The notes: generated by a model not told the origin, from the letters alone. DNA of 12,923 nucleotides from a virus (IMGVR_UViG_2534681651_000004:1-12923), one strand, 5' to 3'. Numbered from the stretch's first letter, positions 4,409-12,923 are shown. Program-made: numbers and translations.

Positions 4409-4804
4409 CTAACCTCGCATGTCAAAGCCAGATTTCTGAAAATCTCTGTAGACTTCCGGATTGTTGAAGGCCGGAAATTTGGCTTTATGAGCTGCGGACT
4501 TTATCGCTTCGCAATAGGCTTTATCACCGTTACTGGTAGATATTTTTAACGCCGTGCCATCCTGAGAGAATTCCATATGCAACCTGCATTTTTTCCCTTT
4601 CCAGTTATGCGGCTCATCAAGTTGGGCATTAATTGCAGCTCTGATTCCCCGCGCTTGCGCCCCCCATTCATCCTGATCATCCCAGCGTCCTGAACTGCAA
4701 CTACCCGTAGCAGTAGTTTTGTGGCAATCTGAAGGGTGTAAAGGTGTGCATCCCGCAACAAAACCGACCCCAAAAGTCAACATAACGATTTTCTTTAATC
4801 CCAC
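4409..4804 (-). CDS. Lipoprotein with a TolA C-terminal (domain III)-like domain, divergent paralog
   Basis: GTG start with a GAGGAG SD. Signal peptide plus lipobox VAGC (MGLKKIVMLTFGVGFVAGC). C-terminal region ...KGKKCRLHMEFSQDGTALKISTSNGDKAYCEAIKSAAHKAKFPAFNNPEVYRDFQKSGFDMRG shares the two Cys and the PEVY..FQ motif with the neighbouring paralog and with TolA domain III. Confidence 0.75.
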   Translation of the reverse strand: MGLKKIVMLTFGVGFVAGCTPLHPSDCHKTTATGSCSSGRWDDQDEWGAQARGIRAAINAQLDEPHNWKGKKCRLHMEFSQDGTALKISTSNGDKAYCEAIKSAAHKAKFPAFNNPEVYRDFQKSGFDMRG

Positions 4805-4954: not shown

Positions 4955-5383
4955 TCAGGGTTTAAAATCCAGCACCCCATTTTGAAATACTTTATATACT
5001 TCCGGCGAAGGGGGGGCAGGTATATCAGCATTCTTTATCGCATTCATCGCTTCACGACATAAATCGAGGTCTCCACTTTCTCTTTTAACCTCCAGTAGAA
5101 GGCCATTCGGGGCCATATGCATTCTCAGTGTACACTCTTTTCCTGAATACTTACTCGCATCCCCGAACTGTTTTTCGATGGCGCTCTTGATTTGATGGGC
5201 ATACAGACGGATATCCTCACTAACATCAGAAGTACGTTCAGATGAACTCACATACTGTGTCTCTATTGCTTTATCGGAGTAATATGATGTACGGTCATGA
5301 TAATTTGTCGATACAGCATCAGTGCACCCGATAATAATCCCACTAATAATCAACATAAGAATTGATGCGCTACGAAAACCCAT
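4955..5383 (-). CDS. Lipoprotein with a TolA C-terminal (domain III)-like domain
   Basis: ATG start with a GAGGA SD. Signal peptide plus lipobox IIGC (MGFRSASILMLIISGIIIGC). C-terminus YAHQIKSAIEKQFGDASKYSGKECTLRMHMAPNGLLLEVKRESGDLDLCREAMNAIKNADIPAPPSPEVYKVFQNGVLDFKP closely matches the recalled E. coli TolA C-terminus (YAGQIKSAIESKFYDASSYAGKTCTLRIKLAPDGMLLDIKPEGGDPALCQAALAAAKLAKIPKPPSQAVYEVFKNAPLDFKP). Confidence 0.8.
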   Translation of the reverse strand: MGFRSASILMLIISGIIIGCTDAVSTNYHDRTSYYSDKAIETQYVSSSERTSDVSEDIRLYAHQIKSAIEKQFGDASKYSGKECTLRMHMAPNGLLLEVKRESGDLDLCREAMNAIKNADIPAPPSPEVYKVFQNGVLDFKP

Positions 5384-5916
5384 TTTTCCTCACATATGTC
5401 ATATAGTAAAGGATTATATATACCGTTGTTTTGGACGCTCAAACAGCGAATCAGATCAAATAAAACGCACATTTGTTAACATTTACACAAAGGCTGCGTG
5501 GAATATTCTGAAAGAATATCCATAATGTGGAGAGAATCTATTGAAGTGCATGGTGCCGGGTGCCTCCCGGTGAATTCAGTACCAGCACCTGAATCCGCGA
5601 TTATCCCATATACCTACTCGCTGATTGCCCCTCCGCACAGGGGGATTCACCATGCCAGTTTCTTTTAACAAACTCCCCGCAAACCAGAGAACAGTCAACC
5701 GCCTGAATTGTGAAGTATTTAAAAATTTCTCCCGCTAACTGATACCCGGCTAACAGTCTGGCGTTTTCTTTTTCAGCAACGGGAAAGCAACAACCACCAC
5801 ACCCGCCACCAGCACACCGTCAGCCAGCACTGACATTATCCGGCTGCTGCAATGCCATTCACAAAAACAGTAAGCAATCACTTTTTACCGTAACAGGTGA
5901 TAATCCAGATATGTAT

Positions 5917-6380: not shown

Positions 6381-6457
6381 TGGCGCGCTGTACTGGATTC
6401 GAACCAGTGACCGATTGCTTAGAAGGCAATTGCTCTGTCCGGCTGAGCTAACAACGC
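6381..6457 (-). tRNA. tRNA-Arg (anticodon UCU, reads AGA), phage argO-like
   Basis: Reverse complement GCGTTGTTAGCTCAGCCGGACAGAGCAATTGCCTTCTAAGCAATCGGTCACTGGTTCGAATCCAGTACAGCGCGCCA folds as a cloverleaf: 7-bp acceptor stem, anticodon stem ATTGC/GCAAT, loop CTTCTAA, T-loop TTCGAATCC, encoded CCA. Confidence 0.85.
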
Positions 6458-6557: not shown

Positions 6558-6633
6558 TGGTGGCCCTTGCTGGATTTGAACCAGCGACCTGGCGATTATG
6601 AGTCGCTCGCTCTCACCACTGAGCTAAAGGGCC
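6558..6633 (-). tRNA. tRNA-Ile2 (anticodon CAU, lysidine type; ileX/ileZ-like)
   Basis: Reverse complement GGCCCTTTAGCTCAGTGGTGAGAGCGAGCGACTCATAATCGCCAGGTCGCTGGTTCAAATCCAGCAAGGGCCACCA closely resembles recalled E. coli ileX, including the CUCAUAA anticodon loop, and has an encoded CCA. Confidence 0.8.
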
Positions 6634-9769: not shown

Positions 9770-9925
9770 TTACTCCTCAGGTTCGTAGACTGTGAAGACA
9801 GCGACCTCCGTCTGGCCGGTTCGGATTCGTACCTCGCAGAGGTCTTTCCTCGTTACCAGTGCCGTCACTATGACGGTTAAACAGATGACGATCAGGGCGA
9901 TTAACATCGCCTTTTGCTGCTTCAT
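9770..9925 (-). CDS. hok: Hok-family type I toxin (HokD/RelF-like)
   Basis: MKQQKAMLIALIVICLTVIVTALVTRKDLCEVRIRTGQTEVAVFTVYEPEE is near-identical to recalled HokD. AAGGAG SD upstream of the ATG at 9925. The 70-aa ORF-track version (start 9982) is an in-frame upstream extension, possibly mok-like. Confidence 0.9.
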   Translation of the reverse strand: MKQQKAMLIALIVICLTVIVTALVTRKDLCEVRIRTGQTEVAVFTVYEPEE

Positions 9926-10136
9926 AGCCTGCTTCTCCTTGCCTTTCGGCACGTAAGAGGCTAACCTAGATTTGCCGTTCATAGATTGAGCCTCAGATTA
10001 ATGTTAAGCGTCTTGCAGGACGCGTAATGTTAACTGGGGCTTTTCTCTATCTGCCTTTGGTGTTCATGCCTGAGACAGATAGCCTCAAGCACCCGCAGCC
10101 ATTCTACTTAACTCCCGTCACCTGGCCAATATAAAA

Positions 10137-11764: not shown

Positions 11765-12190
11765 CTAGTAACGTCTAAAATACCTAACATTTCCCTGATA
11801 AAATGCCATAATGCGCTGCATAACTTCGCTCTTCCGGCACTCGCGACAGATTATGTTTAGACAACTATCGTAGCGACGTATTTCTCCGTCAGGTAATGAC
11901 CAGATAAGGTCCGGATCAACCGCAGATGGTTTCTTCAGCTTTGCCCTTGAGAGCTTTTTACGGGCATTTTGCCAGTCCTTACGCGCCTGTTCAGACGGGA
12001 ATAACCCGTAACCAGAGTTGTATACATCGCCACTGGCAACCAGCTCTCTGGCCAGAACGCTCATCAGATATCTTGTTGCCCCAGTTTTAGTTTCCAGTTG
12101 TCGTAACGTCTCGCGCCCACTCTGGCGTACGAGTTCAACAACCTGCCCTTTAATTTTTTCCCGCTCTTCTTGTGTAAAAACTTTTGCCAC
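11765..12190 (-). CDS. Small hypothetical protein with a probable helix-turn-helix near the N-terminus
   Basis: 141 aa with a GTG start preceded by AGGAGGG. The segment TLRQLETKTGATRYLMSVLAREL looks like an HTH. Basic C-terminal half with CxxC (CRECR). Confidence 0.6.
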   Translation of the reverse strand: MAKVFTQEEREKIKGQVVELVRQSGRETLRQLETKTGATRYLMSVLARELVASGDVYNSGYGLFPSEQARKDWQNARKKLSRAKLKKPSAVDPDLIWSLPDGEIRRYDSCLNIICRECRKSEVMQRIMAFYQGNVRYFRRY

Positions 12191-12230: not shown

Positions 12231-12884
12231 TTACCCCCTGAAGCCCGGCGGAATTTCGTTATCCGGTTCAGAAATATGATTCACACAACGCTGGTTGTTC
12301 GTGCCGCTTACCGGGAGCAACCAGGGGTTCTCAAAATTCCGGTCCGGTCCAAAAAACGTCGTCGCTCGCTGAACAAATTCCGTTCCCGTTTTCCCGGTAG
12401 CCGCCAAGTATCTTGCGTAACGCCTCACGCCATCCAGCATGGCCTCTGGTGGCACCCCCTCGCGTAATCTGGCCTTCCAGGCACTGAAAGCGGATTTCTT
12501 CGGGTTTGCTCCGGCACGCAACGGGTACTCCCGCCAGACCTGTTCGAACACATCCGGATAATCCACTCGTCCCACAGACAGCCCGGTGTTTTCCGGGACT
12601 ACCCGATCGGCTTCCCGCTGAATGGCGGAATCGGCTTCAGGCTGCTGCAGTTGGTGTGATTGTTCCGGCCTTTGGGTCATCACCTGCTGCACAGCGCCCG
12701 AATCGGCTTTCAGCGCATACGCTGAATCGGCTTCCGGTGTCGTGCCTGCTGGCTGACCAGGATTGACGGTCTGAACATCCCCTGCCTGGTTCGTGGCGTT
12801 TTTTACGCCATGGACCATAGTGTTTTGATCTTCTTGATCTGTATCTTTATCTGTATCTTTATCTGTCGTGACTCGTCGTGACAT
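12231..12884 (-). CDS. Hypothetical protein, possibly the C-terminal part of a longer replication-type protein whose reading frame stays open to the window edge
   Basis: 217 aa from the ATG at 12884, but the frame has no stop through 12923, so the gene may start beyond the window. N-terminal acidic low-complexity region (TTDKDTDKDTDQEDQ; Pro/Gln/Ala-rich linker); conserved-looking C-terminal domain (VDYPDVFEQVWREYPLRAGANPKKSAFSAWKARL...). Confidence 0.6.
   Translation of the reverse strand: MSRRVTTDKDTDKDTDQEDQNTMVHGVKNATNQAGDVQTVNPGQPAGTTPEADSAYALKADSGAVQQVMTQRPEQSHQLQQPEADSAIQREADRVVPENTGLSVGRVDYPDVFEQVWREYPLRAGANPKKSAFSAWKARLREGVPPEAMLDGVRRYARYLAATGKTGTEFVQRATTFFGPDRNFENPWLLPVSGTNNQRCVNHISEPDNEIPPGFRG
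12837..12866. repeat. 12-bp tandem direct repeat (ATCTGTATCTTT, about 2.5 copies)
   Basis: atctgtatcttt atctgtatcttt atctgt; encodes the DKDTDKDTD repeat on the minus strand. Confidence 0.7.
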
Positions 12885-12913
12885 GTGCGTGACATTTCGT
12901 GATGCGCCGTGAC
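12867..12913. repeat. Iteron-like array: five CGTGAC/T hexamers at 10-11 bp spacing
   Basis: CGTGAC at 12867, 12877, 12888 and 12908, and CGTGAT at 12898, giving helical-turn periodicity. The array straddles the start of the edge ORF. Confidence 0.6.
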
Positions 12914-12923
12914 AATCGCCATT

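Follow-up and report, generated by a model that had tools for sequence, protein, structure and literature searches.

We identified a candidate replication origin at the right-hand end of the viral sequence IMGVR_UViG_2534681651_000004:1-12923, all 12,923 nucleotides (nt) of which are referred to here as the window. An array of five short hexamers and the AT-rich tract adjoining it probably form the core of a prophage theta-type replication origin that lies within its own initiator's gene, where the linker is encoded, as judged by sequence comparison. Most likely, the hexamers at 12867-12913 are the iterons, and the tract at 12823-12866 the unwinding element, of an origin of the lambda/SPP1 type. 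A further group of hexamers upstream in the same gene, which we call cluster 1 (the array being cluster 2), would be an auxiliary or regulatory site. The conservation of the sites at the DNA level, the co-variation of the hexamers with the N-terminal domain (N-domain) of the initiator, the replication context of the gene and the low duplex stability of the tract are direct observations. The initial annotation had proposed a candidate origin or operator in an open frame at the window edge; a candidate origin within an initiator gene is supported by the extension of that frame, by matches to replication families, by the presence of the repeats in homologues and by the AT-rich tract.

Hexamer array and AT-rich tract in the initiator gene

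The window matches positions 2233343-2246265 of the Escherichia coli AST215 chromosome over its full length, with two mismatches. Between the window edge and its stop codon (12231-12233) the minus-strand frame containing the array stays open for 231 codons, as had been read from the window, and it continues for 125 more codons in the chromosome. The full initiator gene has 356 codons (window-equivalent 12231-13301). The gene start and an N-terminal domain had been predicted to lie beyond 12923, and in the AST215 genome we found both, with the ATG at 13301 and a domain modelled as winged-helix-like. Start codon, N-domain and cluster 1 are 215-380 base pairs (bp) past the window edge.

All five hexamers of the initial annotation were located at the 10-11 bp spacing described there. 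On the plus strand the motif CGTGAY begins at 12867, 12877, 12888, 12898 (here CGTGAT) and 12908, with spacings of 10, 11, 10 and 10 bp. On the coding strand it reads GTCACG and begins at nt 389, 399 (ATCACG), 409, 420 and 430 of the gene, spanning nt 389-435. The repeats are 6-bp cores separated by variable spacers of 4-5 bp, all direct and without dyad symmetry. Chance falls far short of explaining how they cluster. Over the entire window the hexamer is just mildly in excess (17 found vs 10 expected); the largest same-strand cluster within 50 nt has five members, compared with a maximum of three, reached twice and never exceeded, in 2000 dinucleotide-preserving shuffles of the window. A Poisson estimate gives ~1e-7 such five-hexamer clusters expected per window.

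In the whole 43.5-kilobase (kb) prophage of which the window is part, there are only two clusters of at least three hexamers, both inside the initiator gene. Cluster 1 lies ~260 bp upstream of cluster 2, within the N-domain coding region, and has direct hexamers at gene nt 129, 139, 149 (GTCACA) and 160; a single inverted copy follows at nt 192, a distance of 30 nt. Among 71 near-identical E. coli viral contigs, differences in the array fall mostly in the spacers. An Rfam search at the array found no RNA family.

The coding strand continues from cluster 2 without a gap into 2.9 copies of GATAAAGATACA and then GATCAAGAAGATCAAAA. Tandem Repeats Finder reported the plus-strand equivalent as a 12-bp repeat, TCTTTATCTGTA, at 12832-12866 (2.9 copies, 95% matches), adjoining the array on its left. 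The initial annotation had correctly placed a 12-bp repeat beside the hexamers, but had counted 2.5 copies and started it at 12837, 5 bp to the right of its actual start. The adjacent AT-rich unwinding element that was to be looked for would be represented by the tract at nt 436-480 of the 1071-nt gene, and such a tract also follows the arrays of relatives. Its 12823-12863 part is the least stable 41-bp stretch in the whole gene, with a nearest-neighbour free energy (dG) of -44.7 against a gene mean of -58.7 (standard deviation 3.7), and with 73% pyrimidines on the plus strand it has a strong purine asymmetry. Two GATC (Dam) sites, at 12827 and 12836, are 9 bp apart within the putative unwinding element; the sole further GATC in the initiator gene is at 12605.

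On the far side of the AT-rich tract from the array sits an imperfect palindrome with a perfect core of only 6 bp (shuffle p = 0.16). In about 11 of 40 related loci, a perfect stem of unusual length (shuffle p <= 0.05) follows the array at ~100 nt or less, mostly at 25-80 nt. This is weakly suggestive, and the palindrome may be an auxiliary origin element. Ori-lambda has a palindrome next to its AT-rich region, which the one beside the window's tract recalls.

Related loci and modular organization

We compared 55 related loci from one-genome-per-species contigs (Enterobacterales, Pseudomonas, Bordetella, Burkholderiales, Acidobacteria and others), plus phage loci; layout counts refer to the 47 loci with an assignable hexamer type. 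A search for homologues of the C-terminal domain (C-domain) gave mostly fragments and frameshifted products, and a profile search was then used. An in-register array of 2-7 hexamers occurs in the linker-coding region in 44 of the 47 loci, with spacings of 10 bp (111 times), 11 bp (14) or 9 bp (4). The AT-richest 40-mer of the gene starts between -10 and +40 nt from the array end in 40 of these 44, and the 45 nt after the array have a median A+T of 0.67, vs 0.45 for the genes, and a median purine content of 0.74. This AT-rich partner of the array is present even where the gene is only 32-40% A+T.

Subfamilies differ in their hexamer word, which is GTCACG, GTAACG, CGAACG or GCAACG, with ACTACG in two further loci. 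When the periodic hexamer was detected independently in each cluster, the two clusters of a gene agreed in their word at 27 of 31 loci (permutations: mean 14.9, maximum 21). This agreement between clusters, together with the co-variation of the word with the N-domain subfamily, gives indirect support to a binding of the hexamers by the organizer, as the initiator is annotated. The expectation that the repeats would recur in homologous phages held, for they are in the same place in many genera, co-vary with the N-domain and are followed by the AT-rich tract. The loci with an array range from Proteobacteria to a cyanophage. The CGAACG layout is complete in a podovirus from a spring metagenome, and the cyanophage Cy-LDV1 (32% N-domain identity) has two to three GCAACG hexamers and a purine/AT tract in the same place.

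Database matches to the two halves of the protein point in different directions. By tblastn, the N-terminal 138 residues are ~70% identical in the Pseudomonas phages phita81A and 5371, in which the C-terminal half is unrelated. Residues 158-356 are 65% identical in the "O" proteins of PhiR5_2 and 75/02 Stx, in which the N-terminal half is unrelated; SfV, phiP27 and Stx phages share this C-domain. The phita81A gene has GTCACG at nt 129, 139, 149 and 160, at nt 388, 398, 408 and 418, and inverted at nt 192, matching the positions in the E. coli gene, and no hexamers were found in PhiR5_2. By this comparison the array follows the N-domain rather than the C-domain, and the neighbouring helicase or loader genes vary. 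Among N-domain relatives with unrelated C-domains, homology stops at residues 138-150 (window ~12850-12890), at or just before the junction of iterons and AT-rich tract. The junction at which the gene exchanges modules is therefore also the site of the candidate origin.

The surroundings of the gene are those of a replication module. The initiator gene is just downstream of genes resembling cI, cro/YdaS and cII/YdaT, and the divergent cI/cro transcription switch is ~1 kb from the array. In relatives, the gene after the organizer encodes a DnaB helicase, a primase-helicase, a lambda-P-like protein (as in relatives L008 and L009) or a DnaC/IstB-like loader. Exchangeable helicase-recruitment neighbours are as expected for a replication module. 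Of 5426 complete E. coli genomes, 1552 contain most of a 1224-nt query region from this locus, as do more than 570 viral contigs. Seven phage records match it with 93-97% identity and a query coverage of at least 80%, including the viable phages Tritos, Evi and vB_EcoS-689R5, which have the same replication module. Only 26 phage records carry this N-domain, and none of the classical model phages is among them.

The initiator protein and its proposed action

The NCBI annotation pipeline names the protein a "phage replisome organizer protein". It matches PHROG 3729, "replication initiation protein", at 1.8e-256; weaker N-terminal matches are to the "replisome organizer" PHROGs 4880 (5e-6) and 5968 (2e-4), and the C-terminal part matches a "DnaD-like helicase loader" PHROG. 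At default thresholds, Pfam and NCBIfam assigned the protein to no family, and a permissive Pfam scan added a sub-threshold match to PF09681 (Phage_rep_org_N). The proposal that the protein belongs to a replication family agrees with these matches. The lambda O family, PF04492, gave no match even at E <= 10.

In the AlphaFold model of a relative whose N-domain is 98% identical, the predicted local distance difference test score (pLDDT) exceeds 90 for residues 11-90, where helices are followed by a beta-hairpin. The N-domain is thus confidently modelled as compact, with a winged-helix-like topology. Winged-helix regulators dominate the list that Foldseek returned for this model, which is a hint only. 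Residues 130-161 (pLDDT < 50) are predicted to be a disordered linker. The window frame encodes an acidic linker, DKDTDKDTDQEDQ..., and the tandem repeat codes for DKDT repeats (DKDTDKDTD); the frame translation thus agrees with the acidic low-complexity linker and conserved C-terminal domain first described from the window. We propose that the C-terminal domain is a module recruiting the helicase or the host replisome.

The C-terminal tail matches NCBIfam DnaT at profile positions 156-179 of 179 (E 7e-4). In the Protein Data Bank (PDB) it matches 6aep, 2ru8 and 9zbt_D, with 14 of 22 residues identical to the 2ru8 chain, and a PDB sequence search with the organizer found nothing besides this DnaT tail. 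The motif common to both proteins is V/I-N-x-V/I-S-E-P-D-x-x-I-P-P-G-F-R-G, in the last 22-24 residues. The three-helix domain PF17948 (DnaT_DNA_bind) was not matched in this protein, of which only the last 24 residues are DnaT-like; some relatives with the same N-domain do carry PF17948. The tail also occurs on relatives with quite different C-domains, and on the PhiR5_2 "O" protein, whose neighbouring gene is DnaC-like. Its distribution suggests a portable peptide for docking a host factor.

In the mechanism that we infer, the winged-helix-like N-domain would bind the GTCACG hexamers, probably with one protomer per helical turn and along one face of the DNA. The initiator would also bind cluster 1, with its four direct hexamers and one inverted hexamer. 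The resulting nucleoprotein complex would destabilise the adjacent (GATAAAGATACA)n tract, whose stability is low, and thereby melt it. The C-domain with its DnaT-like tail would then bring in the host helicase-loading machinery, because no loader gene adjoins the initiator gene here. It is conceivable, if rather unlikely, that this is an "initiator-only" replicon coupled straight to replication restart by the host, in which the origin-bound organizer, via its DnaT-mimicking tail and DnaD-like domain, replaces DnaT and docks PriA and/or DnaC-DnaB at the bubble after melting of the (GATAAA)n tract.

Cluster 1 encodes a surface loop of the N-domain, residues 44-55, and the sequence of this loop therefore varies with the hexamer class, variants being SRNVTRGHxDVT, SNATERGRTQ and SxATQxNADATRGN. 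We found no residues outside the iteron-encoded loop that clearly track the hexamer class. More speculatively, the loop may help to read the hexamers, in which case one stretch of DNA would be both site and reader, and the two would be forced to co-evolve.

Could the repeats be a by-product of coding a repetitive acidic linker (SRNVT..., DKDTDKDTD), with no function as DNA? The two clusters do encode similar peptides, SASRNVTRGHIDVTT and GASRNVTHMSRRVTT, and the 12-bp repeat encodes the DKDT repeats. The hexamers, however, occupy all three codon phases (2, 0, 1, 0 in cluster 1 and 1, 2, 0, 2, 0 in cluster 2), and three does not divide the 10-11 bp period, which marks these as repeats of DNA and not of peptide. 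Third positions inside the cluster-1 hexamers are frozen, with an entropy of 0.10 bits vs 1.39 bits at 45 other conserved codons (21 loci of mean 69% nucleotide identity; Mann-Whitney p = 5e-6). Across cluster 2 the DNA, "hexamers + YAGATAAAGA...", is conserved even though loci read it in different frames (phase 0, 1 or 2); in loci L015, L030 and L033 the DNA "GTCACG ACAGATTAGATAAGAG" is in another frame and gives a different peptide. With the linker predicted to be disordered as well, an explanation by coding alone is hardly credible.

Two other explanations accept the hexamers as protein-binding sites. The same initiator-bound arrays could be mainly regulatory, through autorepression, an intragenic roadblock or copy control by handcuffing, with the initiation site elsewhere. 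Iteron plasmid systems commonly pair initiation with autoregulation, and two clusters in one gene, one of them with an inverted copy, resemble operator or handcuffing layouts. What makes this improbable is that the array is ~390 nt into the coding region and is invariably paired with the AT-richest, least stable tract of the gene, which an operator would not need. In the stretch examined, a simple scan placed all five promoter-like sites on the opposite strand and none on the initiator gene's own, and promoter and terminator sites around the gene were no more numerous than in shuffles, which gives no support to a promoter-linked operator. The prophage has no other hexamer cluster to act as origin, and the layout agrees with characterised origins (PMC5737612, PMC7466680). 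Still less probable is that the array binds some other protein, be it a host factor or a phage regulator encoded nearby, or serves mainly as a recombination joint between N- and C-modules. The homology of relatives does end at residues 138-150, exactly at the array and AT-rich tract, and the (GATAAA)n tract is common to otherwise unrelated genes, which would favour recombination. Microhomology explains neither the 10-bp phasing, nor cluster 1, nor a word that changes in both clusters with the N-domain subfamily, and the word stays constant while flanking genes and C-domains vary. The role as a module junction is more likely a consequence than a function.

Several observations weigh against an initiator-bound origin at this site. 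The assignment to the replisome organizers is open to question because of the weak PHROG matches and because PF09681 is matched only below threshold (E 0.0081; 16.6 bits vs a cut-off of 23.3; positions 1-119 of 121), and in a Foldseek search of the PDB the N-domain model had no significant neighbour (best E 0.4). A 6-bp core is a very short specific site, so that specificity would need cooperative, phased binding, and the window's second hexamer (12898-12903) is degenerate, most of the 71 near-identical copies having GTCACG there. Neither cluster is present in one cyanophage relative (a Microcystis phage, with a truncated protein), and cluster 1 is missing from some relatives, which leaves cluster 2 and the AT-rich tract as the universal core. 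In this prophage, no P-, DnaC- or DnaB-like helicase or loader gene lies next to the initiator gene. The prophage integrase is annotated as frameshifted (L143 493-1530; 2252492-2253529 in the record, outside the window), so that this copy may be inactive or unable to excise, with its replication module intact. An operator role could exist alongside the origin function, with autoregulation by the same sites. Finally, the literature searched contained no description of these repeats, of GTCACG iterons or of replisome-organizer origins in E. coli prophages; a prior description is possible in the review of Weigel & Seitz 2006.

Prophage context and comparison with known origins

The host element is a lambdoid prophage of the Qin/Rac type, with dicB, ydfC, hokD and ydfU/ydfT-like genes, integrated beside a tRNA-Ser gene and mtfA. 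Its features within the window are collected with those of the candidate origin in Table 1. The CAT-anticodon tRNA was called Met by ARAGORN and Ile by RefSeq, and is probably the lysidine-modified Ile2. The TolA-like genes are possible morons, which would hinder colicins or phages in their Tol-dependent entry. What occupies the place of the DUF5677 gene varies among otherwise near-identical prophages; phage Tritos has a different gene there, on the opposite strand.

Table 1. Features of the window and of the adjoining part of the initiator gene (window coordinates)
Feature	Position	Strand	Remarks
Two TolA / TolA C-terminal-domain genes	4409-4783 and 4955-5383	-	just upstream of lysis cassette
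STnc100 small RNA family, full-length match	5494-5684	-	RF02076, 111 bits; between tolA-like genes and tRNAs
tRNA-Arg(tct) and CAT-anticodon tRNA	6381-6457 and 6558-6633	-	downstream of Q-like antiterminator
hokD toxin gene	9770-9925	-	type I toxin-antitoxin pair, prophage early-right region
sok antisense RNA, partner of hokD	9920-10094	-	Rfam RF01794; pair listed as 9770-10094
DUF5677 protein, 341 residues	10512-11537	-	between hokD and DUF977 gene
Downstream gene, DUF977 / LygF / Ren-like	11765-12190	-	PF06163 4.8e-29; PHROG 142
Initiator gene, 3' part (693 nt, codons 126-356 and stop)	12231-12923	-	"phage replisome organizer protein", WP_023140713.1
C-terminal tail, residues 333-356, ...RCVNHISEPDNEIPPGFRG	12234-12305	-	matches host DnaT C-terminal tail
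Conserved helical C-terminal domain (residues ~240-330)	12312-12584	-	common to "O"-type proteins of other lambdoid phages with unrelated N-domains
Imperfect palindrome, TGGTTCGTGGCG TTTTTTA CGCCATGGACCA on plus strand	12787-12817	.	13-pair stem, G-T pairs allowed
AT-rich tract, purines on coding strand	12823-12866	.	holds 12-bp tandem repeat; candidate DNA unwinding element
Hexamer array (cluster 2), candidate iterons	12867-12913	-	five direct GTCACG hexamers on coding strand, linker-coding part of initiator gene
Cluster 2 hexamers, coding-strand order	12908-12913, 12898-12903 (ATCACG), 12888-12893, 12877-12882, 12867-12872	-	
Cluster 1, candidate iterons	window-equivalent 13105-13173 (L003 19105-19173)	-	GTCACG-like hexamers, beyond window edge

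This is a very common E. coli module, yet its origin is unannotated and, in the literature searched, undescribed. It also offers a clean natural experiment on origin recognition, in which one conserved N-domain scaffold occurs with at least four hexamer "dialects", each in two clusters, and is joined to many different helicase-recruitment modules. Knowledge of the origin would be of use in annotating prophage replication modules, in building phage-derived replicons and in predicting replication incompatibility or cross-activation among co-resident prophages. The tail would make the connection of DnaT-type proteins to DnaB/DnaC, a step that a 2026 preprimosome paper describes as still unknown, accessible to experiment (PMC13377028). 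In the text examined, the whole C-terminal domain of DnaT docks on PriA and forms filaments on single-stranded DNA; the extreme tail is not singled out there and interface residues are unnamed (PMC13377028). The window initiator shares with E. coli DnaT only the last 22-24 residues, the remaining sequence being unrelated.

In lambda and Stx phages, the origin, made up of iterons and an AT-rich tract, is placed mid-way in gene O (PMC7466680). The window resembles the lambda origin and its six-iteron Stx variants in having the origin in mid-initiator-gene, at the junction of an origin-binding N-domain and a loader-recruiting C-domain, and in having direct repeats flanked on one side by an AT-rich tract (PMC7466680). 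It is also like lambda in its genome position downstream of cI/cro/cII, and some relatives of the window gene have a lambda-P-like neighbour. Lambda iterons are ~19 bp long and dyad-symmetric, each binding a dimer of O. Of the lambda-type layout that the initial annotation had proposed, the position of the origin within the gene and the AT-rich tract stand; the window sites, however, are 6-bp cores every 10-11 bp without a dyad, the initiator lacks a PF04492 match, and no P gene follows. The second cluster 260 bp upstream and the DnaT-like tail are further differences. The resemblance to lambda is one of layout and not of family membership.

The organizer G38P of the Bacillus phage SPP1 is an initiator without an AAA+ domain, and oriL, embedded in gene 38, consists of iterons ("AB boxes") bound by G38P and an AT-rich DNA unwinding element (PMC5737612, PMC6316719). 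Similarly, the window gene holds direct repeats together with an AT-rich tract inside an organizer gene. Its N-domain aligns over the full length of Phage_rep_org_N, but below threshold. Unlike SPP1, which has a distant oriR, the prophage has no distant array in the 43.5 kb scanned; gene 38 is followed by the loader and helicase genes 39 and 40, whereas none follows the window initiator; and the hosts here are Gram-negative, with repeats of different sequence and length. In lactococcal P335-type phages (TP901-1 ORF13, Tuc2009 Rep2009, phi31 per), organizers with an N-terminal DNA binding domain bind direct repeats inside the organizer gene; the hosts and repeat sequences differ from those of the window. 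Theta plasmids (pPS10 RepA, R6K pi, F RepE) likewise have phased direct repeats, a winged-helix initiator and an adjacent AT-rich unwinding element, and the sites are often regulatory too. Their iterons are 17-22 bp long, usually lie outside the rep gene, and have no sequence relationship to those of the window. Set beside these systems, the window origin would be an ordinary kind of element, one that would work like the origins of lambda and SPP1; its initiator falls outside the lambda O family and matches the G38P/Phage_rep_org_N family only below threshold. Its interest centres on the hexamer dialects, the dual clusters and the DnaT-like tail.

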